A stretch of DNA of 64,000 nucleotides from an uncultured Chloroflexia bacterium. GTDB taxonomy: Bacteria; Chloroflexota; Anaerolineae; Anaerolineales; UBA4823. The notes beneath the pieces were generated by a model that had not been told where the DNA came from, did not search any database, and saw nothing but the letters and a program-made list of their open reading frames with translations. A program made the translations under genes and the position numbers. Below are positions 1,779 through 55,379 of the stretch, one piece after another. The stretch covers positions 53,957 through 117,956 of the forward strand of contig CAWHJB010000003.1 in NCBI GenBank assembly GCA_963829555.1. Direction: 5' to 3'. Each line of letters starts with the position of its first letter. Within the stretch, counting starts at the first letter, position 1.

Positions 1779-2906
1779 TTAAAGTTCTTTGCGGAATACC
1801 CGGTGGTTTTTGTAGGCCACCCCGCCTAAATTGATCAAGTCGCTGCGCATATTGGTGGCCGTTTCAGCAACCTGGGTCAAGTCAGCGTCCCCAAAATTAT
1901 AGTCATGGATGGTGTTTTCCATTTCGGCATACAATAAGGCGTTCCCACCTCGGCCTTGAAATTCGGGCAAGATGCCGGCCCCATTCAGTGCGATCCATTT
2001 CGTGCGTCGCAGTTCGAGCATCAGATCGAAGATCCCAAACGGCAGCAGGCGGCCCTTATTGCGCTGGATCGCCGCTGAGACGTCCGGAAAACCGAATAAA
2101 AATCCGACCGCTTCATCTTCATGGGCAATCACTTTGATCAGTCGCGGGTCCGCTATGGTGAGAATATTGTCGACGACGAAATCGATCTCTCGCTCCGTCA
2201 AGGGGTAATACTCCCAGTTATTGACAAAGGCTTTGTTATAGGCCTCGCCAATCCGTTTTGCCCAGGTTAATAACTCCCGCTTGGTCTTGAATTTTAAGAC
2301 CCGCAAGGTGCCGCGTTCCTGAACCCGCCGGGAGATACTATGAATACGTTCCGGCAATTTGAATTTTTCTGCGTTTAAATGGCAGGAAACGAAATCGACT
2401 TCTTTCTCAAAGCCGATGTTTTCCAATAGTTTTGGATAGTACGGGTAGTTATAGTTCATCATGGTCATCATCTGGCGGTGCTCAAACCCTTCCACCAGCA
2501 GACCATAGCCATCCAACGGCCCAAAACCTTTTGGGCCAACGATCGTATCCAGACCACGCTCCCGCGTCCATTCGAATGCCCGTTCAAATAAGGCGTTGGC
2601 CACTTCCTGGTCGTCTTCGCATTCAAAAAAATAAAATTGAGCCTGTTTCGTTTGGTGGTATTCATTGAAGTGCCGGTTTTCGAGGGCGGCAATCCGGCCA
2701 ACATCACGGCCGTCTCGATGTGCGATGAAAAAATCTGCCTCGGAATGGTCATAAAAAGGATGTTTGTTCGGATTCATCTGGGCTTTAATGTCGACCAGGA
2801 TGGGTGGCACCCATTGGGGATGGCCCCGGTATAGACGGAATGGGATCTCGATGAAGCGTTTTACCTGGCTCTTTGCCCCGGTGTCAATTTTTGTTACTGT
2901 TAGCAT
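1779..2906 (-). CDS. GNAT-like N-acyltransferase family protein
   Basis: Track ORF 1779-3014. Likely start is ATG 2906 (MLTVTKIDTG) preceded by GGGAGG. Acetyl-CoA type motif QGRGGNALLY near the C-terminus. Paralogous by eye to 24650-25850. Confidence 0.6.
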   Translation of the reverse strand: MLTVTKIDTGAKSQVKRFIEIPFRLYRGHPQWVPPILVDIKAQMNPNKHPFYDHSEADFFIAHRDGRDVGRIAALENRHFNEYHQTKQAQFYFFECEDDQEVANALFERAFEWTRERGLDTIVGPKGFGPLDGYGLLVEGFEHRQMMTMMNYNYPYYPKLLENIGFEKEVDFVSCHLNAEKFKLPERIHSISRRVQERGTLRVLKFKTKRELLTWAKRIGEAYNKAFVNNWEYYPLTEREIDFVVDNILTIADPRLIKVIAHEDEAVGFLFGFPDVSAAIQRNKGRLLPFGIFDLMLELRRTKWIALNGAGILPEFQGRGGNALLYAEMENTIHDYNFGDADLTQVAETATNMRSDLINLGGVAYKNHRVFRKEL

Positions 2907-2973
2907 GGGTACCTCCCGGCCGAAACGTTGAATTATTGTATTTACCTTGCTAATGTCACAATCGAAGAAATCC

Positions 2974-3029
2974 CCAAAATTTCGATGGGTGTGGCGGGCA
3001 GCTGCCCGCCACACCCATCGAAATTTTGG
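2974..3029. repeat. Perfect 56-nt palindrome (28+28, centre CAGCTG)
   Basis: ccaaaatttcgatgggtgtggcgggcag|ctgcccgccacacccatcgaaattttgg. Flanked by the outer inverted pair aatgtcaca (2952-2960) / tgtgacatt (3041-3049). Lies in the leader of the GNAT-like gene. Confidence 0.85.
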
Positions 3030-3294: not shown

Positions 3295-3993
3295 TTACAG
3301 ATTCTGCCTGTTCGTCGGGTTGCCGGTAAGTTTTCCATCTCTCAAGTAAAGAATGCGATCGGCGTAATTCGCCGCTTCCTGGCTGTGGGTGACCAAAATC
3401 ATATTTTTGCCCGCCTGGCGGGTCAGCTTATCCAGCAGTGCCAGCACCTGTTTCCCAGTCTGTTCGTCCAGGTTGCCGGTGGGTTCATCAGCCAATACCA
3501 GTAAAGGATCATGCACCAGGGCGCGTGCGATGGACACCCGCTGTTGTTCGCCTCCGGACAAGCGGTCCGGAAAAGTGCCGGCCCGGTCCAATAAACCCAC
3601 CGCATCCAGCAGGGGCTCGGCCCGTTTTTGGGCCGCCTGGGGTGAGATGCCGCCCAGTTCCAGTGGTAAGGTTACATTTTCGATCACTGTCAGGGTGGCA
3701 ATCAGATTGAAAAACTGAAAGATAAACCCAATGTTGTGGCGACGAAAAAGGGTACGCTGGCGCTCGTCAAGGGCGGTTAAATTTTGACCATTCAGCCAGA
3801 TCTCACCGTGATCGACCCGATCGATTCCACTGATAATATTGAGGAGGGTGCTTTTCCCGCTTCCGCTCCTGCCGAGTATCGCCACAAACTCGCCGGGCTC
3901 GAAGTTCGCGCAGGCGTCCTGCAGGATTTCACGTTGGCGATCGCCTTCCTGGTAGCTTTTGGTGATATTTTCTAAACAGATAAATGGTTCCAT
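3295..3993 (-). CDS. ABC transporter ATP-binding protein (MacB/LolD type)
   Basis: Walker [10 protein letters not shown], signature LSGGEQQR, Walker [10 protein letters not shown]; 232 aa. Confidence 0.9.
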
Positions 3994-4050: not shown

Positions 4051-5458
4051 TTACTGCCCTTGACGATATGTCTCCAGGGCCCGTTCTCTGGCTGCCTTGT
4101 GGTCGACGATCGGAGCGGGATAGTCCTTGCCAATCCGGCAACCGACCTGGCGCTGTACTTCTTCCGGCATTTTCCAGGGTTCGTGAATAAACTCCACCGG
4201 TACATCGGCAAGCGCTGGCAGCCAGCGTTTGACATAGATGCCTTCCGGATCATACTTTTGACCCTGGGAGGTGGGATTAAAGATCCTGAAATAGGGAGCA
4301 GCATCGGTGCCCGTGCCAGCTGTCCACTGCCAGCCGCCATTGTTTGAGGCCGGATCACCATCGATCAGATTCTGCATGAACCAACGCTCACCCCACCGCC
4401 AGTCGATTAATAAGTCTTTGGTTAAGAATGAGGCAGTGATCATCCTGGCCCGGTTGTGCATCCAGCCAGTGGAAACGAGTTGGCGCATGGCGGCATCCAC
4501 AACGGGATAACCGGTCTCGCTGTTTTTCCAGGCCGCAAACTGAGCGCGGTCATTTTGCCAGGGGATAGTCTGCAGACGAAAGTTTTGGGTCCGCACTTCG
4601 GGAAAGTGGTGCAGGATATGGATGTAAAAATCCCGCCAGATCAATTCATTCAGCCAGGATTTCAGCTGCTTTACGCTCCCTGGCGTTATCAGCGGCCTTG
4701 ACAACCTGGCGGGCAGCCGCAAAAACCCGCCGGGGTGAGATCATTCCGAAACGCAAGTAAGGAGAAAGGCGGGAAGTGCCGTCTTCTCCCAGCAGATTGC
4801 GCCCCGCTGCATAGTCAAAGATGGGCGCGCCGGAGCCACGAGTAAACTGGTCCAGACGTCGGCTTGCTTCTGTTTCCCCGGCCTGGAACGGGACCGATTC
4901 CAGAAGGGCTGGCTGTTCGGGTATCGATAAACTGGCCAGTTCTCCGGGCGTGTTGAGATCCAAAACCGGATCTGAACTCGGTGCAGTCGGGGTGGGCAAA
5001 GCTTTCCAGGCGCGGCTGAACGGCGTGAAAACGATATATGGTTCACTATTCGATTTCAGGACACTGCCCGGCGGGAGAATCGCCGGGCTGCCAACCCACT
5101 CAACCGGCAGTTCCGCCTCGACCAGGCGATCCCGCTGGCTGGCAAACGGTGAACAGTCGGGTTCAGCATAAATCCGGTCAGCACCGCTGGCCTGGAACAA
5201 ATCCGCCAGGATTGCCCTCGGTTCGCCTCTTCGCACGATCAGCCGTCCGCCGCGCTTTAACAAGGCGGTATGTAAAGACCGCAGGCCGTTAAATAGAAAA
5301 GCCACCCGTTGCTGGGCAACATATGAAGACTTAAGCAAGCGGTCGTCTAAAATGAATACCGGGATGATCGCCCGATGGGTTTCCAGGGCGGCGTTCAAAG
5401 CCTGGTTATCATGCAGGCGCAAATCGCGCCGGATCCACCAGATGGCTGTCTCAGGCAC
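4051..5458 (-). pseudogene. phr: Deoxyribodipyrimidine photolyase, reading frame broken by a 1-nt shift (or assembly indel)
   Basis: N-terminal ORF 4646-5458 (MPETAIWWIRRDLRLHDNQAL...) and C-terminal ORF 4051-4722 (...[11 protein letters not shown]...[12 protein letters not shown]...GWMHNRARM...NNGGWQW) overlap in frames offset by 1. The junction is at about 4670-4700. Confidence 0.85.
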
Positions 5459-5476
5459 AGGTAAAAGAGCTCACTT

Positions 5477-6454
5477 TCAAATTGATAAGGTTAAGCTGGC
5501 CTCGTCCAGAATGGCGACTTCGGCATCCGTTAAACGCCAGCCTGATGCCCCTGCATTTTCAAGCGCCTGGCGTTCATTTTTAGCTCCCGGAATGGGGATT
5601 GTTCCTTTGCATATTGCCCAGTTGAGGGCCACCTGGGCAGGCGATTTGCCGTCGTGATCATGCCCAATATCCCGCAGAACCCGGAGCAGTGGCTGGATTT
5701 TCGTCAGATAGCTACGATTGTAATGGCGACCGCGCACCCCGGGGGGAGTGTTTTCGGGAGTATATTTTCCTGTTAGCACGCCTTGCGCCAGAGGGCTATA
5801 AGCGATTAAAGTGATCCCCAGTTCACGGCAGGCCTCAAGCAGGCCATTCAGTTCAACTTTCCGGTTTAATAAGTGATATTCAACCTGATTCGAGGCCAGG
5901 TGGATGTCATGCTTCATTAAGGTCAGATGCGCCTGGCGCATCTGTTGTTCGTTATAGTTTGATACGCCTACCGCCTTTGTTAGACCCAATTCGACCGCTT
6001 CGGCTAAAGCTTCAGCCCAAATTTCTACCGGAATGGGCGGTGATGGAAAATGGATTTGATATAGATCAACGTAGGAGAGTTGCAACCGCTTGAGGCTGCC
6101 TTTTAAAGCGCGGATCAGGGTACCTTTCCAGAGTCTCCATGGAAGCGGCATAAATTTTGTGGCGATGGTAAAATCCTGGCGGGTTTTGGTTTGCTCTGGC
6201 GCTGATAATCTTTCCTGTATGAAGGCGCCTAATAATCTTTCCGAGCGGCCAATCCCATAAACTTCGGCCGTATCGAAGAAGTTTATCCCACTGGCCAGAC
6301 TGGCCTCAAACGCACCACGAACGTCTTCTTGATGGTAATCCCGGTCAAAGCCCCAGACCATACGATCTCCCCAGGCCCAGGCTCCGGTGCCCAAATCTGG
6401 GAGGATAAGATCTGTTTTCCCCAGCCGATTGGTATGCTCAGATGAGATTTGCAT
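5477..6454 (-). CDS. Aldo/keto reductase
   Basis: 325 aa. N-terminal GTGAWAWGD, DTAEVYG and C-terminal IPIPGAKN patterns typical of the AKR family. Confidence 0.85.
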   Translation of the reverse strand: MQISSEHTNRLGKTDLILPDLGTGAWAWGDRMVWGFDRDYHQEDVRGAFEASLASGINFFDTAEVYGIGRSERLLGAFIQERLSAPEQTKTRQDFTIATKFMPLPWRLWKGTLIRALKGSLKRLQLSYVDLYQIHFPSPPIPVEIWAEALAEAVELGLTKAVGVSNYNEQQMRQAHLTLMKHDIHLASNQVEYHLLNRKVELNGLLEACRELGITLIAYSPLAQGVLTGKYTPENTPPGVRGRHYNRSYLTKIQPLLRVLRDIGHDHDGKSPAQVALNWAICKGTIPIPGAKNERQALENAGASGWRLTDAEVAILDEASLTLSI

Positions 6455-6476
6455 GTTGTCTCCGTTGGCTCCGTAG

Positions 6477-7415
6477 TCAGGGAATGGAACTACACAGTGA
6501 GTCGATGAGTTCAGCGCTGGTCTTTAGCTGGCGCATTTCATCTTCGTTCAAAGGCGGTTCAAGTGTGCTGAGCGATCCTTGCCCGCCAATCAGGTGAGGC
6601 AGGGAAATGGTCACATCGCGAACCCCGGCAATTTCATCGGTTGGGGTGCAGATCGTCAGGATGGCGCGTTGGTCGCGTAAAATCACCTCGACCAGTTTGG
6701 CAATGGCGCTGCCTACGCCATAATATGTCGAACCTTTGCCTTCAATGATGTGATAAGCGGCTTTGCGAACCTGATTGTCGATCTCGTCCCGGTCCTCGCC
6801 GCAAACATCAACTTTTTGAATCCGGCAGAATTCTTCCAGTGGGATCCCGCCAATTGTGACCAGCGACCAGGTCAGCACTTCCGAGTCGCCGTGTTCGCCT
6901 AACACATATGCATGAACGTGTTGAGAGTCTACCCCGAGTTTACGGCCTAAAAGGGCCCGAAAACGAGCGCTGTCCAGCGTTGTGCCTGTCCCAATCACGC
7001 GCCCGGAGGGCACACCAAATTTTCGGGCATACCGGGCCGCCAGGTGGGTCATGATATCCACGGGATTGGTCGCAACCAGCAGTACAGAGTTGGGAGCATA
7101 GGTCAGGATGTTTGGAATGATCTGTTGGAACACTTTTGCGTTGCGTTCAAGCAGCTCGAGCCGAGATTCACCCGGCCTCTGGCTGACACCGGCAGTGATC
7201 ACAACCACTCGGGCGCCAGTCAAAGAAACATAATCCCCTGCATGAACGTGGATTGGATTGGCGAACGGAACCGCATGGGAGATGTCATCCGCTTCAGCCT
7301 GGGCACGAGCCTGGTTAAGATCAACCAGGATCACCTCTCGGCCGATACCGCGCAAGACCATAGCATAGGCGGCCGTTGACCCAACCAGTCCGCTGCCAAT
7401 GATGCCAATCTTCAT
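6477..7415 (-). CDS. ldh: L-lactate dehydrogenase
   Basis: Start moved to ATG 7415 ([14 protein letters not shown]), which forms an ATGA overlap with the upstream stop. Motifs: [10 protein letters not shown] (Gln of LDH specificity), ATNPVD, GEHGDS. Confidence 0.85.
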
Positions 7416-8932
7416 GGGATTTTCCCTTCTTTTAGAATGAGCTGGGCTACCCTCAGGCCGCCCAATGCAACTGCTGCTGTCGATTGTCCTGGAAAGATAC
7501 TGTCGCCAACCATCCACAGATCCTTTTCCAGGCGAGGGCCGCTGGTTGTAAATAAACTGGTTTGCGGAAAGCCACCGACCCAACCACGCGATCTGCGTGT
7601 AAAACGTTGGAAGGTCACCGGTGTCCCGGGCAAGATCAGGCTGGCCTTATGGCGCAAACCGGGTATGGCTACTTCTGCAGCAGCCAATACACGCTGAGTA
7701 TAACTCGCTTTTAGGTTTTCGTAAGCAGCCCGTTCCTTTTCGAACAGATTCCACCACTGCGAAAGATCTGTGTGCGTGCTGATCGTGAGCGCTCTCTGTC
7801 CCTGAGGCGCACGCTCGCGATCCCAAGCGGGGCTGAGCGACAGGAAAATGGAATTACCTTCGCCGAGGGGTTCTCTTACGATCACCTGGTGATGCAGGGG
7901 AAAATGATTTTCCAGATCGCTCCCGTCCAAACCTATGTAGAGTGTAAACGCTCCCCAACCCGTTGTAGGGGGCTTGCTGTGAGATTCTATCGTCTTTGGG
8001 ATATCACCTGCCAACAGGCTGGCGATATCCCAGGCCGGTAAATTCGCGATCACCAGATCCGCCGGATAATTGCCGCCTCGTTTTGTTCGCACATCAAAGG
8101 TATGACCGGTTTTCCGAACGATCCGAACTACTTCCTGCCGGTAATTCACTTTCCCGCCATGCTGTTGGACGGCTTCAGCCAGTTGTTTGCTGATTGTTCC
8201 AATCCCACCCTGCATATGGACCACGCCGCGGCGGGCTAAATCCAGGGCAGAGGCGGCATAGAGGGCATTCGCCTGGCGGCTGGTGGTCTGAGCGGAGATC
8301 AGGAGTTGACCGTCAATATATTGCCTCAAGGTCTCTGGCATATTGGTTAAGTGGTGGCCGGTTGATCGAACGGCGTCGGCAACCATCCCCGGATGGAGGC
8401 GTTGGCGGGGCGACTCCGCCAGCCAGGCCAGCCCTGTCCCGATTAACTGCCCCCATTGCGCCGGTGACTGAGGTGGCCACGGCGGCAGTTTCAGTGCCAA
8501 ATCCCATAATGCATCGGCCGTTCGTTCCTGCCAGTGAAAAAAAGGCTCGCTTGCTTGCCCAAAGGCGGCTCGTCTGGCTTGCCATCGGGATTGGTCGCCG
8601 CGCAGTTCGATTCTGGTCCCGTCTGGCAAGTGGACGATCATGACCTGCTGCTCGGCATGGGCCCGCCAGGCAGAGATCCCGACCGCGGCTGCCACCAGGT
8701 CCATTGGTCCGCCTGGGTAAAATCCCCCTGCCAGGGTGGCACCGGCATCGAAGCGATAACCCTGGTGATAGAAGGTCCCGGCGCAGCCCCCCGGATAAAT
8801 ATGAGCTTCCAGCACGGTTACATCGAATCCGGCTTTGGCCAGGCGAGCTGCAGCGGTTAAGCCGCCAACGCCCGCGCCAATGACGACGACTTTCTGGGCG
8901 GATTCACACCCCACCTTGGGCGTGTTATTCAT
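7412..8932 (-). CDS. Phytoene-desaturase-family FAD oxidoreductase (CrtI/CrtD-like)
   Basis: FAD fold [29 protein letters not shown]...YPGGCAG. Likely start ATG 8932 (MNNTPK) in an ATGA overlap with the upstream gene. Confidence 0.7.
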
Positions 8933-9370
8933 GATTGTAACAATCGTTGGGTCTTCCAACCACGGAATGCAAACAGGATCGGCAAATTCCACCACATTAA
9001 TCGCCCGATCAATCCCCAGAACCAGTGGCGTTTGAGTGTGGCTGAAACCTGGTCAACAACCAGGGTCTCCTCTGCAGCCAGCGCTTGAAAACTGTGGCGA
9101 TGCTCCCAGTGGAGGAAAGGGCCTTCGATCTGCCGGTCTGTAAATCCAGTCTCCGAAACTGCCTCGATTTTGGCCAGCCAATTTACTGGAAAGGGCCCCA
9201 GCCACAAAGTGAAACGCATTTCGTCGTCTTCGGCCAGGATATCGGGCGTTTGGTGCAGGCGAACGATGATTGGAGGGGGAGTGATTGCAGCCATGCTGGA
9301 CGAGGGCGCGGTGAAATTCGACCACTTTTTCAAGCGGCGCTTTGACGCTAAAGCTGTGTCTATATCGCAT
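8929..9370 (-). pseudogene. SRPBCC-superfamily protein, frame broken near the N-terminus (or assembly indel)
   Basis: MRYRHSFSVKAPLEKVVEFH (frame of 9370) continues logically in the frame of ORF 8929-9333 (APSSSMAAITPPPIIVRL...GPFLHWEHRHSF). The junction is at about 9307-9313. Confidence 0.6.
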
Positions 9371-9380
9371 GGCGGGATAA

Positions 9381-10319
9381 TTACTGCGATCGGGGTTTCA
9401 GAACGGCTCGCAGGGATGAGACCGCATCCGGGTAATCGAAGGTAAAGCCCGCTTCTGTGAGACGGGTGGGCAACACTCGCTGCCCGTCGAGTAGTACAGT
9501 GGACATTTCACCGAATAAGAACTTCATCAGAAATGCAGGAACCGGGAACCAGGATGGACGGTTCATGACTTTGCCAATCGCTTTTTCGAATTCTTTATTG
9601 GTGACTGGATTCGGTGATGTAAGGTTATAAACGCCAACTGCAGCCTCATTTTCCAATAGAAAACGAATGCCTTTGACCACATCAAAAATATTGATGTAAG
9701 ATACCCACTGTTTTCCACTACCGATCGGACCACCCACAAAAAATTTGAACGGCAGGATCATTCGCGGTAAAGAGCCCTGTTGACCGTCCAGGATGACCCC
9801 TGTTCGGATCACAGCCCGCCTGACACCAAATTTTTCGACGGCTTCAGTCGAGGCTTCCCACTGAACGCAGACCTGGCTTAAGAAATCATCTTGATGGCCC
9901 GCTTCTTCCGTGATCACTTCGTCGCCGCGGGGTCCATAATAACCAACGGCAGAGCTTTGGATCAGAAGTTTTGGCTTTTTCTGGGCCTGCTGGACGGCTT
10001 CCACAATGGCATGCCCGGGTTGTAAGCGACTTTCAAGAATTGTTCGTTTTCGTTCCTTGGTCCAGCGGCTTGGAAATAAAGAATCGCCGGCAAGATTCTC
10101 GCCAGCCAGATTCACAATTGCGTCTGCTTCCTCGACCAAGGAGCCCCACCCGGCAGATGTATTACCATCCCAACCAACGACCCGGATCCCTTCACCAAAT
10201 CTGTCCCGATTTTTTTCGGGAGAACGGCTGAGGATGATGACTTCATGCCCTGATTTAGCCAGTTCGCGTGACAACAAGCTGCCCACCATTCCGCTTCCGC
10301 CTGAAATAATGATTCGCAT
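9381..10319 (-). CDS. TIGR01777-type SDR (epimerase family with DUF1731-like C-terminus)
   Basis: MRIIISGGSGMVGSLLSREL Rossmann motif; 312 aa; RBS AGGAGA upstream of ATG 10319. Confidence 0.8.
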   Translation of the reverse strand: MRIIISGGSGMVGSLLSRELAKSGHEVIILSRSPEKNRDRFGEGIRVVGWDGNTSAGWGSLVEEADAIVNLAGENLAGDSLFPSRWTKERKRTILESRLQPGHAIVEAVQQAQKKPKLLIQSSAVGYYGPRGDEVITEEAGHQDDFLSQVCVQWEASTEAVEKFGVRRAVIRTGVILDGQQGSLPRMILPFKFFVGGPIGSGKQWVSYINIFDVVKGIRFLLENEAAVGVYNLTSPNPVTNKEFEKAIGKVMNRPSWFPVPAFLMKFLFGEMSTVLLDGQRVLPTRLTEAGFTFDYPDAVSSLRAVLKPRSQ

Positions 10320-10388
10320 TTTATTCTCCTGTTTTGAACCACTAGCTTAGTGGTCTCCTCGCTAAGTTCTTTTGCTTTGAAAAGTGAT

Positions 10389-10437
10389 TGTAATGTTCAT
10401 TTTTGTGCGGCGAGGCCGCACAAAAATGAACATTACA
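10389..10437. repeat. 49-nt palindrome (23-bp perfect stem, 3-nt loop) in the operon leader; diverged member of the GGTGTTC...GGGCGGC family
   Basis: tgtaatgttcatttttgtgcggc gag gccgcacaaaaatgaacattaca. Nested inside the imperfect outer inverted repeat 10350-10365 / 10461-10476 (13 of 16 matches). Confidence 0.85.
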
Positions 10438-10585
10438 TTTGCTCTTTTTCCTAAAGATATTTAGCGAGAGAACCACGTAGATGCGTTCGGGATAATTCAA
10501 ATATTTCTTAAATTCAGAGTTGCTTATCCCGTATATTCTCTCTATACTAAGGTAACGTCGCTAAGAGATACATTTACTTACTAGA

Positions 10586-10614
10586 ATTATACAAAAACAA
10601 TGCGAATATGTCAA
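10586..10614 (-). promoter_or_regulatory. Consensus sigma-70 type promoter for the SDR-to-photolyase operon
   Basis: The minus strand reads TTGACA (10614-10609), a 17-nt spacer, then TATAAT (10591-10586). The predicted leader is about 260 nt. Confidence 0.6.
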
Positions 10615-10642
10615 GTTATTGTACAAGTAATGTTCATATTGC

Positions 10643-10671
10643 TTGACAGGTATTAAAACGTATGATAAACT
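10643..10671 (+). promoter_or_regulatory. Candidate promoter of the CarH/LitR-like regulator gene
   Basis: TTGACA (10643-10648), a 17-nt spacer, then TAAACT (10666-10671). Its -35 hexamer lies 28 bp from the -35 of the divergent promoter. Confidence 0.4.
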
Positions 10672-10700
10672 CTTGTAGCATAAAAATAGACGAGTGAAGA

Positions 10701-11672
10701 GTGAACATGAAAACATTACCTGATGTGCAAACTGGAAACGAAGAACCCCTGTACAATATTGGCGTTGTCGCTCGGATGACAGGCGTGTCCATGCCAACTT
10801 TACGGGCCTGGGAAAGGCGGTACGATTTCCCGAATTCGGAGCGAACTGCCGGCGGGCATCGTTTGTATTCAGAAAAGGATGTCTTGCGCCTGCGTTGGGT
10901 GAAAGCCCGGATTGATGAAGGTTTACAGACCTCCCAGGCGATTCAAGCTCTCCATCATCAGGAAGAGGTTGGACGCATGGCGCCAGTGGAACAACCTTAT
11001 AGCTGGCAGGATGGACGCCAATCGGAAGGGGGCACGCATCTGGGGTCGTACCAGCAGCGCCTGATGGAAACGCTGCTGCGCCGCGATGTCGACAGCGCCG
11101 ACCGTCTTCTGGGTGAAGCTTTACCATTATCCTCGCCTGAAGATTTAATTTTGGACGTTATCGGGCCAACTTTTACTCAAATCGGTGAGGCTTGGGAGAA
11201 TGGCCATATCAGTATCGCCACAGAGCATCTTTCGACCAATTACCTGCGCCAAAGATTGTTGATGTGGATGATGAGCGGTCCACCTCCACGAAATACCAAG
11301 CCGATTGTTTTGGCATGTGGTCCGAATGAATGGCATGAAGGCGGCTTGCTGGCTTTGGGTGCTTTGCTGCGACGCAGTCGTTGGCCGGTGGCTTACCTGG
11401 GTCAGTCCCTGCCACTGCAGGATCTGGCGTCATTTGTCCGGGATCTGAGACCCAACCTGGCAATTTTGGTGGCAATGACCGAAGTTTCCGCCAGTGAGCT
11501 GGTGGATTGGCCTCAATATTTACCCGAGGTGGCCCAGACGGGCAAGCCCGTTATCGGGTATGGGGGGCGGGTATTCAGCCTGCAGCCTGAATGGCGTTTG
11601 AGAATGCAGGGTGTATATTTAGGCGATACCCTGCGGGATGGTATGCAAACCATCGAGCGTTTGCTGACTTAA
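10701..11672 (+). CDS. MerR-family transcriptional regulator with cobalamin-binding domain (CarH/LitR-type photoreceptor candidate)
   Basis: HTH YNIGVVARMTGVSMPTLRAWERRY. W-x9-E-H (WENGHISIATEH) and E-x-H-x-x-G (EWHEGG) signatures. The track start is GTG 10701; an alternative start is ATG 10707. Confidence 0.85.
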   Translation: MNMKTLPDVQTGNEEPLYNIGVVARMTGVSMPTLRAWERRYDFPNSERTAGGHRLYSEKDVLRLRWVKARIDEGLQTSQAIQALHHQEEVGRMAPVEQPYSWQDGRQSEGGTHLGSYQQRLMETLLRRDVDSADRLLGEALPLSSPEDLILDVIGPTFTQIGEAWENGHISIATEHLSTNYLRQRLLMWMMSGPPPRNTKPIVLACGPNEWHEGGLLALGALLRRSRWPVAYLGQSLPLQDLASFVRDLRPNLAILVAMTEVSASELVDWPQYLPEVAQTGKPVIGYGGRVFSLQPEWRLRMQGVYLGDTLRDGMQTIERLLT

Positions 11673-16699: not shown

Positions 16700-18373
16700 T
16701 CAAACAAGCTCGACCAGACGGGTGAGTGACCCAGCCCGCTCGCTAAGCACTTGCAGTTTTAGAGTACTCCCATGAGGCGCCTGGACGACCCACTCGTAGC
16801 GAGCCCGGTTATCCGTGCCGGCTGAGCCCCATAAATCGAATTGATCGAGCTTGTTGCTCCTCCCTTCCAGATGGCTTAATTCTACCCGGTTTTTACCTGT
16901 CACCAGCGTTCCGCCCTCTGGTATTTCAAGTTCGATTCGGACTGGACGGGCAGCTTTGCGTTTTTTGGCCTGCTGGCTGGTGTAACTGGGTAAAAACCCA
17001 CTGTTTTCTACTGCGACCACGATTCGAAAGCGATCTTTCCCCAGGGAACTCACATCCAGTGTTTTTAGGTTCAAGTGCGGCAGCAGATCACCAACAGTCA
17101 GCGCGAAGGGAACGTTACGGCTTGCCTCGGCTGCCAGAAAAGCCTCGGGTGGATTGCGCCAGGTATACATTTCGTGCCAGCCGCCCAGTTCCAAAGGGCC
17201 AAGCTGAGGATGGTCAAACGGATACCAATTTACATAACCCTGAGCCCCCACATTCTCATCGGCCCACTTTAGAATTTGCAAATCATCTTTATGGGGATGT
17301 TCACGAAACCATTCGATGAATTTCCTGTCTTTGATACCCGCCTCGGTGGGCAGATCCCACAGTTCAATCGTAAATGCAAACGCGCCGAAATGATCGTACA
17401 TCCAATCATCAAACGCGCCGCTGGTAGTCTCTTTTGGGTGATATTTAAAATCATGGAAAGTTGATACGCAGCGATAGCCGGTTTTATCGGTGCCGATAGC
17501 CCCGATCTTTTTTAATACCCACAGATCTTCTGTCTCCATGTCATCGTCTGGACGGGTGCTGAAAGGACGCAAGATGACCCTCGAGAAGGTGTGATAAGTG
17601 ATTGCCAGGTTAATGTTTGGATGGTCGGCGACAAAATCAGCCAGGGCCCTGATTTCAGGTTCTGAGACCGGATAAGGGCCGGCCCCTGATTGTTCATTCT
17701 CCGGTCGCCACTCAAACGGGAAATTCCGATTGAAATCCAGGCCGGCTGGATCAGGGGCGATTTCAATGACCTCTCCATCAAAATTTTTAATTTTTCCTTC
17801 CGGCAGCAGGCGGTAATATTGGCCTCCGTATTCTGCCGGGGCGCGTTTTTCCATCAGGCGCGGGTCCAGGCTGCTGATCTTCCAATCTCCGTTCGGATCG
17901 GGGATGCGCATTTGCAGGATGCGGCCATCGCCATCGAGGTCCTCTTCGTGCAAGCCGTCCGCCCGCTCATTCCATGGATACGGCCGGGTCCCTGAACGGA
18001 CATAGCGCGGTATATCCGCCAGGGCCATGGCCGCCCCGTCCGGATTGACCCTGGGAACAATATAGTATGTACAGGTGTTCATCAGGCGGGTTGGCTGGTC
18101 TCCCTGGCCATAACCGCTCAATAATGCCTCGGCGACCGCCAGGGCGGTTGTGGTCCCGGTGATTTCGGTTGCATGGATGTTGGCGTCGATCCAAATTGCC
18201 GGCTTGCTGAGATCATTCCCGGTTTCCTGGTTTGTCAGGATCAACAGCCAGATGGGGCGTTTTTCGTAGCTCTGGCCAATCGTTTCTAAACGGACCAGGT
18301 TCGGATATTCCTCAGCCCATGCATGCAGGACTGTTTCCAAAGCTTCGTTGGTGTAATAATGATCAAATTCCAT
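16700..18373 (-). CDS. M14-family zinc carboxypeptidase
   Basis: 557 aa. IWIDANIHATEITG zinc-binding HxxE motif. The start overlaps the upstream stop by 1 nt. Confidence 0.8.
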   Translation of the reverse strand: MEFDHYYTNEALETVLHAWAEEYPNLVRLETIGQSYEKRPIWLLILTNQETGNDLSKPAIWIDANIHATEITGTTTALAVAEALLSGYGQGDQPTRLMNTCTYYIVPRVNPDGAAMALADIPRYVRSGTRPYPWNERADGLHEEDLDGDGRILQMRIPDPNGDWKISSLDPRLMEKRAPAEYGGQYYRLLPEGKIKNFDGEVIEIAPDPAGLDFNRNFPFEWRPENEQSGAGPYPVSEPEIRALADFVADHPNINLAITYHTFSRVILRPFSTRPDDDMETEDLWVLKKIGAIGTDKTGYRCVSTFHDFKYHPKETTSGAFDDWMYDHFGAFAFTIELWDLPTEAGIKDRKFIEWFREHPHKDDLQILKWADENVGAQGYVNWYPFDHPQLGPLELGGWHEMYTWRNPPEAFLAAEASRNVPFALTVGDLLPHLNLKTLDVSSLGKDRFRIVVAVENSGFLPSYTSQQAKKRKAARPVRIELEIPEGGTLVTGKNRVELSHLEGRSNKLDQFDLWGSAGTDNRARYEWVVQAPHGSTLKLQVLSERAGSLTRLVELV

Positions 18374-20800
18374 CAGATGTTATGCTCCTGTAGATCGAAT
18401 TGTATCTCTTGGAATAAGGGCACCTTTAGCTCGGCGCCCTGGATGGGAGCCGCCTGCCCATCGATAACGATCGAGCGGGCGCTGCCCCCATGCAAATGAA
18501 GAACCAACTGTTGGTAAGGGAATGGATAATTGCCCTGGCTTTCACGCCGGATGAGCCAATGGTCGTCTTCCCGATTGAGGATAAATTCATCCAGGCGCCA
18601 ATCAGCATAGCCATCACCGGCGTCACTGAACAATGTCCCTTGATCGTGCCCGTGGCGGGGAATATAGACGTGCAGTTCAAGCTGCTGGGAGGTTGCAATA
18701 GGCAATATACTGCCGGCGCGAACCAGCACCGGGAGGCGATCCAGAGTGGTTAAGATCTCGATCGTATCAGTCCCTTCATAGCGAACGTCTTCCCAAAAAC
18801 TGTACCAATCCCCTTCCGGCAATCGAATGGAACGGGTTTGGGCCTGCGGTTCCAATACAGGGGCAATCAGCAGATCGGGTCCACACAGGAAAGCATCCTG
18901 CACATCCCAGAGGTCGACGTCCTTCAAATTCATCCACCACAATGGCCGGATGAATGGTTGGCCAGTCTGGCCGGCCTGCCAGGCCAGGGTATATAAATAT
19001 GGCAGTAACCGATAACGTAATTTCAGGAAGTCGCCTAAAATCGTTGAATAGGGCTCGCCGAAAACCCAGGGCTCGCGGCGTGCGGTGCCAATTGCGGAAT
19101 GGGTGCGAAAAAGCGGTAAAAACGTCGCCATTTGGAACCAGCGCAGATAAAGCTCGGCAGGCGGATCGCCTGAGAAGCCGCCGATATCCGGGCCGGTCAT
19201 CCCCATCCCACTCAAACTCAAACCCAGGATGGAGGGGATGCTCATCCGAAGGGCCTCCCAGGTGCTCTGGATATCACCGGTCCAATTCCAGGCATAGCGC
19301 TGGATACCTGCCCAGGCAGAGCGTGTAAATAGCCAGGGGCGTTGGTCGGGTTTGAGCTTGTGCAAGGCCTCGTGGGCGGCGCGATTCATCAGCAGGGCGT
19401 ATAGGTTATGGCCGGCCTGATGATCGCCTCCGCTTCCCTCCATGTCGTGCCGGGTGGAGCGCGGTAAGGTCATATCTCCCCAGGCGGAGAAGGAAGTCGG
19501 CTCGTTCATATCATGCCAGAATCCGGCGATGCCCTGCTCCAGTAAAAAGGAATACTGCTCACCCCACCAACGCCTGGCTTTCGGATTCGTGAAATCGGGA
19601 AAGACAGACCAATCAGGCCACACCAATCCGGTCAATGGTTTCCCATCCGGTTTCAGGCAGTAAACTCCCCGATCCAGACCTTCCCGATACAATTTGTTTT
19701 TTGAGTTAACCTTGACCCCTGGATCCAGGATTGTTACTAAGTGGATTGGGCCCGATTTCATCTGCCGGCTCGGCCAGCGATTTTGCCAGACCGGCCAGAT
19801 CCGGGAAACGCTTCCGGTCCACTGTGAAGACCCGATAGCCGTCCATATAATCAATGTCCAGGTGGATGGCGCTGACCGGCCAGCCTCGCTGGCGAAAACC
19901 GTCCACCACCTCGCGGACATCCGCCTCGGAACGGTAACCCCAGCGACACTGATGGTAGCCCAGTGCCCAGCGAGGCGGCAGTCCGGACCGGCCAGTCAGC
20001 TCTGTATAGCGAGCGATTGCCAGCTCCGGCGGCCCAGGGATAAAATAAGACCGCAGCATACCATTTTCAAAACTGACCTTTGCATTACCCTCTTCCCCGG
20101 CGGGTGAGAATTGAAATTGGCCGGGATAATAATTTTCGTAGAAGATCAGGTAACTTCCCCCGGCATGCAAACCCATCAGAACCGGTATGGGCTTGTAAAC
20201 GGGGGCATCATCCGGCCCGTAACTGCCGCCAGGGTCGGTGTTCCACATCTGGTAGCTCTTGCCCCGCAGGTTGAGATCGCCGGTTTGATGCCCAAGGCCA
20301 TACAGGTGTTCATCCTTCGCCAGGTAAGCCTGATGGGCCCAACCAGCTCCCCGGCGTTCAGGAGGAAATTCCTGGCGCAACCGACTTCCCTCCGGGGTGC
20401 TGTAGTCAAGTGTGCCTTCGGGGCCGACCCGGATCATTAATTCCGAACTTGCTATCTGGCTGTACTCGTCCCGTTCTTCCATAAGAACAGACACCTCCGG
20501 CCAGTCTGTTTTAGCCAGGGCATACGGGATCGGTTGTTGAGCGGGTCCCCAGGAGACGCGCGCCAGGTCAGAGGCGAGGAAGACAATCTCAAGTTGGGCC
20601 TGTTCGAACTGCCAGGTTGCACCACTCGGAATCTTTTGAGTTGCTACCCGGCGCCCTGGCAGGATGGCCTCGGTCGGCTCGGGCGCTTGAGCGTATTTTC
20701 TATCCAGGCGATCGCGTTTCAGGCTGTATTGAATTGTTTTCAGACTGGTCTTGAGTTCGGTATTGCGAATACCCGTGACTACCTTTTGGAATAGATTCAT
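18373..20800 (-). pseudogene. GH31 alpha-glucosidase, frame broken by a 1-nt shift (or assembly indel)
   Basis: N-part 19706-20800 (...GYHQCRWGY...AIHLDIDYMDGYRVFTVDRKRFPD) and C-part 18373-19920 (MKSGPIHLVTILDPGVKV...GFWHDMNEP...) are in different frames. The junction is at about 19761-19770. Confidence 0.85.
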
Positions 20801-52243: not shown

Positions 52244-54404
52244 ATGGAAACGAAAACGAAAAACAGGAGGTGGATATTTATCGTCTTTTGCCTTCTCTTC
52301 TTGTTGCTGCTGCCCGCGGGATATACAGGCTATATGACCTATGTGACAGGTCGAATTCCATTTCTGCCAGGCACTCAGACAGTCTCTGACAATGGCACGA
52401 CCTTGTTTGTAGATATCTTAAGCCCATCGTTGGCCGAGAATTTTAGTGTGGGCCAGCCAATTCAGGTACAAGCCCAGGTTTGGGGCCTGGCACCTGTGGA
52501 TACCGTTCAACTCCTCGTGGATGGACAGATCGTGGCAGATCAAACGGAGGATGCAGTTGCCAAGCCTTTAAATGTGAGTTTGATTTGGAATGGCAGTTCA
52601 CCCGGAGCACATGCCCTCACTGTGAATGCGACTGATTTGCAAGGACAAACCCGACAGTCGCAAACAGTGATCGTCAATTTGAATACTCCTCCCTTGAGTG
52701 CGGCTGTGGCTGCAAGCGGCGATACGCTGGCATCGATCAGTCAGGCTAATGGCGTTTCGGTAAATGAGGTCGTGGCACTCAATCCTGGACTGGCCTCTCA
52801 AGCTCCCAATGACCCGGTTTATCCGGGCTACCAGGTGAATTTACCCTCACGCTTAACCCGCCCGACCCAGAGTAATGGGGCACTTGGCAATCAACCAACT
52901 GTTTCCGTCCAGTCACAAACCGGATTGAGTATGTTGATCCAGTGGGCGCTGAATTTTCATCAGCCGGTTGACAGAATTTATTGTTATCAAACCACAGATG
53001 CAGTCAACTGGCAGCGCAACCCTGTAAGTGCCTTTAATTTTCTGCCTGGTCAACAATGGCAGCAGCCCATTCTACTTTCTGCTCAGCGGTCAAATGTAAT
53101 CCTGGTCTTGGATTGCTGGGGTTGGAAAGCCGGCATTTTGAACTACCTTGGACAAGGCCAGACGATCCTTTCGATTGGTAGTGTCCCGCGTGAGATCACC
53201 CTGGAAGCCAGCGGTTTTCAGGCTGTGGGTGTGCCGTTGATTAACCCGCAGGCAAATATACTCCCTGCCCCGAAAGTGCCGCCGCCTTACGGCTTGCGCG
53301 AACCAAAAAGCGTTTCTGAATGTGTTAAATATTTTGGCAGTTCGCTGGCTTCACTCGCCTGTAATGAATGGATCAACGAGCCGGTACAGACCCATGATTT
53401 GCTGATCTGGGATTGGCAGCCCGGCATCTGTCTGCCGGGAGATAACTACTGCAACTGGATCAACGAAATCCGCGGGTACCAGGTATTTGCGGTTGACGAC
53501 AACGGAAAACCCATCGAGTTGCTGCAATCTGTCGATTTGGGGCAGCAATTGGCGGCCATCCCTGTTTCGTGGGGGCCGGTGTGTTACGGTGTGCGCGCTT
53601 ACAGCGGCCATCCCCTCGGCAACAACCCCCTCAGGTTTTCTGAGGATGGTCGTGCATTGTCCTTCCGATCCGGCGCAGCCGCAGACAGTGACGATTGATA
53701 TGGACGAATGGTATTCAGCGGAAGGCTGGACATTACTCGACACTGAGTGCCCGTATGCAGAGAAAGGTAAAAGTAAAGTCACTTATGTCACAAATACATC
53801 AAAAGATGGTCATCCGCCCCTCAAATTGTATCCAAAGGGAAACCAGGTCCTGGTTGGCGACCAATGGTGGCATGCAAGTAATGGTTGTGATGAACACCGC
53901 AATGCCAAAGCGTTAATTCATTTTCCGCTGGACCAGATTCCACCAAAAGCCGTTATCCAGCAGGCCAGGTTGCAATTTATCCAGGAGGGCAATATTCATT
54001 CGTATGATGGTAGTCCCGCATCCATGGATCGGCCCATATGCGCCACCCGCCTCTTCCCCAGCCAACAAACCTGGCAACCACCTTCCGGTAAACATTTCGT
54101 CAATTATGGCGATCCCCGCCCACCAGGAACTGACTATGGTTATTGGTCCGATCAGTTCACCAACGCTGTGCAAGGCGCGCCATACCAGTCGATATCGAGC
54201 ACCACAACTCAATACGATGTAACCGGCGATGTCTTGCAATGGTACCAGAATCCAGCCAGCAATTATGGCTTTTCCATTCAAGCCTGGACAGTGGACCTTG
54301 AATATACAGGTCTGATCCAACCAAACGCCCATAAATCTGGATACTCATTTTGCTGGTCGACCTTGAATAATATCCAACTCGTAGTCGAGTACTTTGCTCC
54401 CTAG
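52244..54404 (+). pseudogene. Signal-anchored Ig-like + LysM + novel C-terminal domain protein, frame broken (or assembly indel)
   Basis: Start ATG 52244 after GGAGG. LysM motif GDTLASISQANGVSVNEVVALNPGL. ORFs 52229-53698 and 53487-54404 overlap in different frames; the junction is at about 53630-53655. Confidence 0.6.
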
Positions 54405-54422
54405 AGTATAAGGATCAAACAC

Positions 54423-55379
54423 ATGAAATCGAGCCATAGTCTTTCTGACAATATGTACGTTTTTTCTGGCTGCCTGCGCGGGTGGATTTAACCTTCCTTC
54501 TTCTTCGAGTGGCGAGACACCGGTTACCTGGATCGATAAACCCTTGCCAGACAGCCAATATGTTCTCGAACCTATCGAACTACTGGTTCATGCCAATGCA
54601 CCCAAGGGTGTTGCTGCGGTGGCTTTCTCGGTAAATGGGCAGCTGGTTGAAGCGCTCCCAATCAGCGGTGACGCCAGACCATTTGTCACCCTTCCACATT
54701 CCTGGACCCCTTCTGAACCCGGAGAATATACCCTGTCTTTTGCGGCGCAAAATGCAGTTGGTGCCTGGGGGGCAAGCAGCGATGTAACGATCCAGGTGGT
54801 CTCGCGACTGGATAACCCACTTGAGGGGGTTAATTTCACAGTGGAGGATACCCACCGCAGGCTATGGCAACCCAGGCTATCCAAGCGACAGTTACATCTC
54901 TTCCTCCGACGCCAATCTACACTTCGACCGGCGTCCCACCAGCCACTGCTATCCCGGCGACAAATACATCTCATCCTCCTACACCCACGAATATCCCGAC
55001 CAGTGTCCCGCCAACCTCCACTTTCACGCCTGTTCCTCCATTGCCGACTACTCCGCCGCCTCCGCCGGATACAGAACGACCAGTGATCCTCGAATTGGAA
55101 TGGTCTCCGTTCTCTCCGCAAGAGGATTCCCCGGTGTCGTTTAGTGTTGTGGCGCGGGACAACGTTGGCGTCACCCGGATTGAGATTTACTTTGTACGCC
55201 AGGGCAGCGCGGCCAGCGGCCCGATATATACCTGTAATAATACCGATGTTTGCACCTATGATGCCGGCAATGGCTTCTCCTGGGGCACTTACAGCTATTA
55301 TGCTAAAGCCTATGATGCCGCCGGTAACCAGGTAAATACATTTACGCAGACTGTCGTGGTACAGCAGGTGGTGAAATAG
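54423..55379 (+). pseudogene. Lipoprotein with two Ig-like domains and a Pro/Thr linker, two frame breaks
   Basis: ATG 54423 (MKSS) reaches a stop after 22 codons. The lipobox sequence IVFLTICTFFLAAC is in the +1 frame. A second shift at about 54834-54865 returns to the frame of the ATG. Confidence 0.55.

Follow-up and report, generated by a model that had tools for sequence, protein, structure and literature searches.

A 64,000-nucleotide stretch from an uncultured Chloroflexia bacterium (order Anaerolineales; contig CAWHJB010000003.1, positions 53,957 to 117,956), here called the window, encodes a predicted light switch: a regulator of the CarH/LitR type and, divergent from it, a compact operon of six genes. 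We put at roughly 0.78 the probability that this regulator is a class I, adenosylcobalamin (AdoCbl)-dependent photoreceptor that represses both the operon and its own gene. The prediction draws on residues aligned with a known photoreceptor, on structural models, and on a conserved operator. The operon combines genes expected of a light response with 2 enzymes that are not, an L-lactate dehydrogenase (LDH) and an aldo-keto reductase (AKR), and both recur beside carH across the Anaerolineae.

The regulator gene lies on the forward strand. Its product consists of a MerR helix-turn-helix (HTH), a four-helix bundle, and a Rossmann B12 domain. The initial annotation placed the gene at 10701 to 11672; the end stands, and the start is more likely the ATG at 10707 than the GTG at 10701, because homologues found by searching a protein collection are 321 amino acids long and begin with MKTLPD. 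The gene would then span 10707 to 11672 and encode 321 residues. Profile searches recover the MerR HTH and the cobalamin-binding domain described at the outset, with Pfam matches to MerR_1 (5e-15), B12-binding_2 (7e-13), and B12-binding (3e-07), the last scoring 30.8 bits, slightly below its cut-off of 32.1. RAWERRY, a form of the recognition-helix motif RxWERRY, occupies residues 33 to 39. The 2 signatures first read from the sequence are also in place: the W-x9-E-H cap at residues 163 to 174 (WENGHISIATEH; W163, E173, and H174) and E-x-H-x-x-G at residues 208 to 213 (EWHEGG; E208, H210, and G213).

The best sequence match in the PDB is CarH of Thermus thermophilus (TtCarH; E 3.7e-35); the alignment falls into 2 stretches, one for the DNA-binding domain and one for the B12 domain. 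A failure of the cap residues to line up with those of CarH had been named as an outcome that would contradict the initial annotation. In the alignment, GEAW-ENGHISIAT-EH stands over GEAW-HRGEIGVAE-EH and PNEWHEGG over PGERHEIG; W163, E173, and H174 share columns with W131, E141, and H142 of TtCarH, and H210 shares one with the lower-ligand H177. All 4 residues are invariant across 26 homologues. The cap, taken together with the lower-ligand His, is treated as the signature of photoreceptors in 2 papers (PMC9304148; PMC11796333). Structural comparison leads to the same protein: for the AlphaFold2 (AF2) model of the regulator (pLDDT 85), the best 50 PDB matches in a fold search are all TtCarH, and the B12 domains superpose with a template modeling (TM) score of 0.83-0.85 and a root-mean-square deviation of ~2.6 Å. 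The named homologues are proteins of Chloroflexota or Anaerolineales metagenome-assembled genomes (MAGs), several of which carry the Joint Genome Institute (JGI) annotation "light-induced transcriptional regulator." By these features, the regulator is an ordinary member of the CarH/LitR family. It is the single MerR-B12 regulator in the genome, and a PduO-type adenosyltransferase is encoded there as well, so AdoCbl can be made.

The region between the 2 divergent transcription units contains the elements expected of a CarH operator. Three tandem 11-bp direct repeats (10608 to 10618, 10619 to 10629, and 10630 to 10640) read nTGTnnAnnnn on the plus strand and hence, on the minus strand, nnnnTnnACAn, the CarH repeat described in the literature; a pseudo-repeat (10641 to 10651) follows directly after the third. 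On the minus strand, the operon promoter (10586 to 10614; TTGACA-17-TATAAT) agrees with the consensus at 12 of 12 positions, and its -35 box lies within repeat 1. The carH promoter on the plus strand (10643 to 10671), recognized from sequence as TTGACA-17-TAAACT with a TG extension, has its -35 box in the pseudo-repeat. No further promoter-like site was found on the minus strand from 10614 to 3426. In published operators, TtCarH binds 3 repeats and Bacillus megaterium CarH 4 (or 3 and a pseudo-repeat), with 1 repeat over the -35 box (PMC9304148). The block is kept in identical register at all 11 orthologous loci retrieved from the family, whose regulators are 57-88% identical, and an operator-like site precedes carH at 53 of 74 Anaerolineae loci. 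A position weight matrix (PWM) trained on these 11 loci, with the window's own site excluded, ranks the window's operator as the top match in the 5.97-Mb genome (31.1 bits). Matches above 26 bits number 9 in the genome, whereas 30 matrices with permuted columns average 0.1.

Two of the strong matches lie away from the window: one just upstream of a crtI-crtB-lycopene cyclase operon (contig C1, ~398 kb; 394768-398100), the other just upstream of a folE-folK operon (contig C16, ~55 kb; 53192-55000). Both sites consist of 3 repeats, and in each case the target promoter has its -35 box, TTGACA, within the first repeat. Equivalent sites are present at orthologous crtI genes in 2 relatives (G001 and G024) and at the closest folE copies in G001 and G004; the crtI and folE paralogues in the relatives checked have no such operator sites. 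Both operons are of a kind typically controlled by light, and carotenoid genes are classic CarH targets. In Pseudomonas, folE, phrB, a short-chain dehydrogenase/reductase (SDR) gene, and a flavin adenine dinucleotide (FAD) oxidoreductase gene are experimentally light-induced LitR targets (PMC9758184). CarH probably also controls the crtI-crtB-lycopene cyclase and folE-folK operons, and the predicted regulon is wider than 6 genes. The reading of the operon as a light regulon, proposed by the initial annotation, is thus strengthened twice: by a CarH-type operator that covers the operon's -35 box and is kept in orthologous loci, and by the operator matches before these 2 further operons.

Further high-scoring operator-like sites occur elsewhere (C11:150000-158100, L044; C5:231290-232640, L043; C3:47589-50460, L045), the last of them just upstream of the window. 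As targets, the genes beside them are weaker candidates: an NmrA/DUF2867-SOUL pair, an M50/CBS protease, a fasciclin protein, and, just upstream of the window, a cluster of alpha/beta hydrolase type, which ends in a putative peroxiredoxin gene read by eye. The genes near such sites may be additional members of the light regulon.

These elements suggest the following mechanism. In the dark, the regulator would bind AdoCbl and oligomerize, most likely as a tetramer; the oligomer would occupy the 3 repeats and the pseudo-repeat (10608 to 10651), a footprint that would cover the operon -35 box and abut or cover that of carH. Transcription of carH and of the polycistronic operon, from the SDR gene to the photolyase gene and perhaps into an ABC ATPase gene beyond it, would be repressed, and the same repressor would act at crtI-crtB-lycopene cyclase and folE-folK. 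Light would cleave the Co-C bond, the oligomer would dissociate, and transcription would begin. Within the cargo, the AKR could remove reactive carbonyls that arise from photo-oxidative stress, and LDH could regenerate NAD+ independently of respiration, or act as a source of pyruvate, at times when respiratory cofactors suffer light damage. In this scheme, the binding of AdoCbl, the state of oligomerization, the response to light, and the cargo roles are all inferred.

The 6 operon genes lie on the minus strand and are packed as tightly as the initial annotation described, with gaps of 22 nt or less and 2 ATGA overlaps: in order from the SDR gene, the junctions are 10 nt, ATGA, ATGA (between the crtD-like gene and ldh), 22 nt (between ldh and akr), and 18 nt (between akr and phr). 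Within the operon, the minus strand showed neither an internal sigma-70-like promoter nor a convincing terminator. The gene list given at the outset holds for the SDR, LDH, AKR, and photolyase, and calls for revision at the 2 other positions. The first gene (9381 to 10319) encodes an atypical SDR of the TIGR01777 type (YfcH/DUF1731; 335.9 bits, above the cut-off). It is followed by the frame-broken gene of a small protein (8929 to 9370), listed initially as SRPBCC. Identification by profile was unsuccessful, as neither the small protein nor its intact orthologue matches any Pfam or NCBIfam profile, and fold comparison is the sole support for an SRPBCC-like assignment: the AF2 model (pLDDT 94) matches the START/Bet v 1-fold proteins TTHA0849, PYL, PR-10, and aromatase/cyclase at TM 0.7-0.8. 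The third gene (7412 to 8932) had been called a CrtI-family desaturase. Its product has the FAD-binding amine-oxidase fold, with the CrtD/CRTISO clade closest and a cyanobacterial-type CrtD as nearest model, at scores under the curated cut-offs (TIGR02734, 103.4 versus 238.1 bits; TIGR02733, 286.7 versus 549.7). A true CrtI (493.8 bits) is encoded elsewhere in the genome.

The fourth gene (6477 to 7415) encodes a canonical NAD-dependent L-LDH of 312 amino acids (TIGR01771, 353 bits, above the cut-off of 303.55), the sole lactate dehydrogenase in the genome. Its best solved relative is the Thermus LDH (E 7e-107), with which it shares the motifs QRPGE, LDSARFR, and GEHGD in the same columns. In standard numbering, we take these motifs to include Gln102, Asp168/Arg171, Arg173 and His188 of the fructose-1,6-bisphosphate (FBP) site, and His195. 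The AKR gene (5477 to 6454) is assigned by profile match; the nearest full-length solved relatives of its product are Bacillus subtilis GSP69 (1pz1) and IolS (1pyf). The sixth gene (4051 to 5458), likewise assigned by profile match, encodes a class I cyclobutane pyrimidine dimer (CPD) photolyase, is frame-broken, and is the sole photolyase gene in the genome. After a gap of 57 nt with no terminator comes a MacB-type ABC ATPase gene (3295 to 3993), possibly co-transcribed; the operon may extend into it, and among 56 related loci, 10 have the light operon followed by an ABC ATPase gene. A cyanobacterial origin of these genes, prompted by matches to ThyD, to an 8-hydroxy-5-deazaflavin (8-HDF) photolyase, and to CrtD, was ruled out: the HIP1 palindrome is not enriched, and the homologues are from Anaerolineales.

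The composition of the operon was called unusual from the start, and a survey of carH loci in the Anaerolineae bears this out. It covered 80 loci, with one genome per species, 56 of which include 5 kb or more of sequence upstream. Among these 56, the gene run divergent from carH contains a TIGR01777 SDR in 17, a photolyase in 14, and an AKR and an LDH in 13 each. Next come crtI (11), crtB, the START-fold protein, an NmrA-like SDR, and an ABC ATPase (10 each), the CrtD-like protein (9), and lycopene cyclase (4). The gene orders that include LDH are several, among them SDR-LDH-photolyase, SDR-LDH-AKR-photolyase, SDR-START-CrtD-LDH, and crtI-crtB-SDR-...-LDH-AKR. The presence of LDH is therefore not explained by one inherited arrangement. 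As judged from this recurrence, LDH and the AKR are genuine members of the photoprotection module. An exclusive association of LDH with carH operons was ruled out by orthologues located elsewhere. In one genome, a distant CarH-like gene (L155; G017:C9:1006000-1022000; 31% identity, open reading frame (ORF) of ~445 amino acids) is co-directional with and upstream of an SDR-START-CrtD-like-LDH-photolyase run; here the cargo is the same, whereas both the regulator clade and the layout differ.

Several observations weigh against a light-responsive repressor that controls the whole operon, and 3 alternative explanations can be set against it. In the regulator, the NCBIfam CarH equivalog NF052513 is the best NCBIfam match, yet it scores 161.9 bits versus a cut-off of 400, which places this clade outside a narrowly trained equivalog. 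The classic SxT/V element of B12 domains lacks its Ser (VAM instead), 28 residues separate it from GG versus the classic 22-27, and the strict B12 expression D/ExHxxG-x41-SxT/V-x22-27-GG has no match in the protein. The residue after the cap Trp is Glu, where TtCarH has the His that serves as the bis-His upper ligand of the light state; because of this replacement, the photoproduct may differ from that of TtCarH. As for the operon, a hairpin with a 23-bp stem in its leader might attenuate expression; the surveyed genomes are related and hence are not independent samples; and LDH is not intrinsically a light gene, since its orthologues are also met at a distance from carH and in relatives that yielded no CarH. 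The deviant Rossmann motif and the missing light-state His would fit a regulator that responds not to light but to the supply of cobalamin or to redox state, in the manner of non-photoreceptor B12-binding MerR relatives, and some of the host MAGs come from dark habitats, such as the DeMMO isolates, which we take to derive from a deep-mine site. We consider this very improbable: the predicted targets are a photolyase, carotenoid genes, and folE, and the regulator retains the intact W-x9-E-H cap that separates photoreceptor CarH from B12-independent CarA (PMC9304148; PMC11796333).

A second alternative accepts a genuine CarH and restricts the light response to the classic photoprotection genes, with LDH and the AKR as housekeeping enzymes that are kept in place by synteny and expressed from unrecognized internal promoters. 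LDH orthologues that stand alone or far from carH (for example, in G024, G012, G025, and G033) can be read in this way, as can the apparent cost of placing the sole LDH of a genome under light control, and the downstream ABC genes are likewise syntenic across relatives. The architecture of the operon makes such a split unlikely, and decidedly so: the crtD-like gene overlaps ldh, only short gaps separate ldh from akr and akr from phr, and the minus strand within the operon offers no sigma-70-like site from which the 2 genes could be expressed separately. Moreover, LDH stays between light genes through several gene orders, and many of the orthologues remote from carH adjoin an SDR, AKR, or photolyase gene. 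A third explanation, which we also regard as unlikely, is decay of the operon in this strain, with real frameshifts that make pseudogenes of the photolyase and START-fold genes. Both genes had been described as frame-broken in the assembly, and this is correct; the breaks affect 2 of the 6 operon genes and trace to a one-base surplus in an AAA run (4660 to 4662; photolyase) and in a CCC run (9304 to 9306; small protein). Gene loss does occur in the lineage, as the CrtD-like gene is truncated in a relative whose regulator is 93% identical. Against decay, each break is a single-base surplus in a 3-base run, both halves of each gene are well conserved, and a contig with a 90%-identical regulator has the same 6 genes with an intact photolyase (468 amino acids) and an intact START-fold protein (146 amino acids). 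A nearby GH31 glycosidase gene (18373 to 20800) is similarly split, into 2 overlapping ORFs in different frames, and is uninterrupted in the 90% relative (L144); this split is probably another assembly indel. The short runs, the intact genes in relatives, and the GH31 split together indicate that the frame breaks in the operon are probably assembly errors. In the close relatives with a 93%-identical regulator (L145:2039-2488 and L146:157-606), the CrtD-like gene is a C-terminal remnant of 149 amino acids between the START-fold gene and that of LDH; the module is quick to lose genes.

The photoreceptor-repressor favored here can be set beside 3 known systems. With T. thermophilus CarH (LitR; PDB 5C8A/5C8D/5C8E/5C8F, 3WHP), it shares the three-part architecture, the aligned W-x9-E-H cap and lower-ligand His, the RxWERRY motif, an operator in which 1 of 3 tandem 11-bp repeats lies over a -35 box, and a regulator gene that is divergent from photoprotection genes and apparently autoregulated. 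It differs in being only ~30% identical, in the Glu that replaces the post-Trp His and the SxT/V element without Ser, in a 20-residue disordered linker (94-108), and in a cargo other than a megaplasmid-borne carotenoid operon. The CarH proteins of B. megaterium and myxobacteria bind AdoCbl-dependently to 3 repeats and a pseudo-repeat, or to 4, that overlap promoter elements (PMC9304148); the window's 3 + 1 layout across two -35 boxes resembles these four-site operators, whereas their targets are carotenoid genes only. A target set close to the one predicted here belongs to the class II LitR proteins of Pseudomonas (PplR/PmlR), under which phrB, an SDR gene, a FAD-dependent oxidoreductase gene, and folE are light-induced (PMC9758184). 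Unlike the window's regulator, these proteins have no B12 Rossmann domain, depend on light-oxygen-voltage (LOV) proteins, and belong to clusters that also contain ufaM genes (furan fatty acid); neither an LDH nor an AKR gene is among those named as light-induced in that paper (PMC9758184).

CarH/LitR switches are already well understood; the modestly new points are the recurrence of LDH and the AKR as cargo and the regulon computed across several loci. A literature search for LitR/CarH in connection with aldo-keto reductase or lactate dehydrogenase found no relevant report. The regulon computed here (the operon, crtIB-cyclase, and folE-folK) is an addition for an uncultured Chloroflexota lineage. 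A bolder prediction, which we advance tentatively and hold to be possible rather than probable, is that, in a non-phototrophic Anaerolineae clade, a B12 light switch has fixed control of an AKR and of the cell's sole fermentative L-LDH, such that light re-routes central redox metabolism and does more than induce pigments and DNA repair. If this were true, LDH would form a single photoprotection module together with the block of SDR, START-fold, and CrtD-like proteins, and light might shift cells from respiration to lactate fermentation or enable pyruvate-based scavenging of peroxide. A photoreceptor would then be linked to central fermentation in a chemoheterotroph, widening the scope of bacterial light responses. 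In addition, the compact operator is a ready-made part for B12-based optogenetic tools.

The hairpin in the operon leader belongs to a dispersed repeat. A nested-palindrome copy (10358 to 10476) is inserted in the ~260-nt leader, and the family comprises ~12 copies of at least 100 nt and many shorter fragments on 10 contigs. The unit is ~120 bp long and resembles a miniature inverted-repeat transposable element (MITE), with copies 88-96% identical (among them C12:87224-87354, C7:161132-161249, C11:79451-79568, C5:49314-49429, and C6:143054-143170). Shorter forms without the inner 49-nt palindrome suggest an element nested in another element. The leader palindrome was ruled out as a second operator or an operon-specific attenuator, as it is dispersed genome-wide and absent from the operon leader of a member of the same genus; for the same reasons, an 11-mer common to the palindrome and the operator is probably a coincidence. 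Finally, at 1779 to 3014, between the MacB-type ATPase gene and an FtsX permease gene, the window holds a gene of ~375-400 amino acids (start MLTIEKVDT) for which Pfam and NCBIfam gave no match. Relatives of this gene (for example, L030:3432-4619 and L036:4601-5737) keep its position across the family, and it is therefore a fixed part of the ABC system rather than an insertion.

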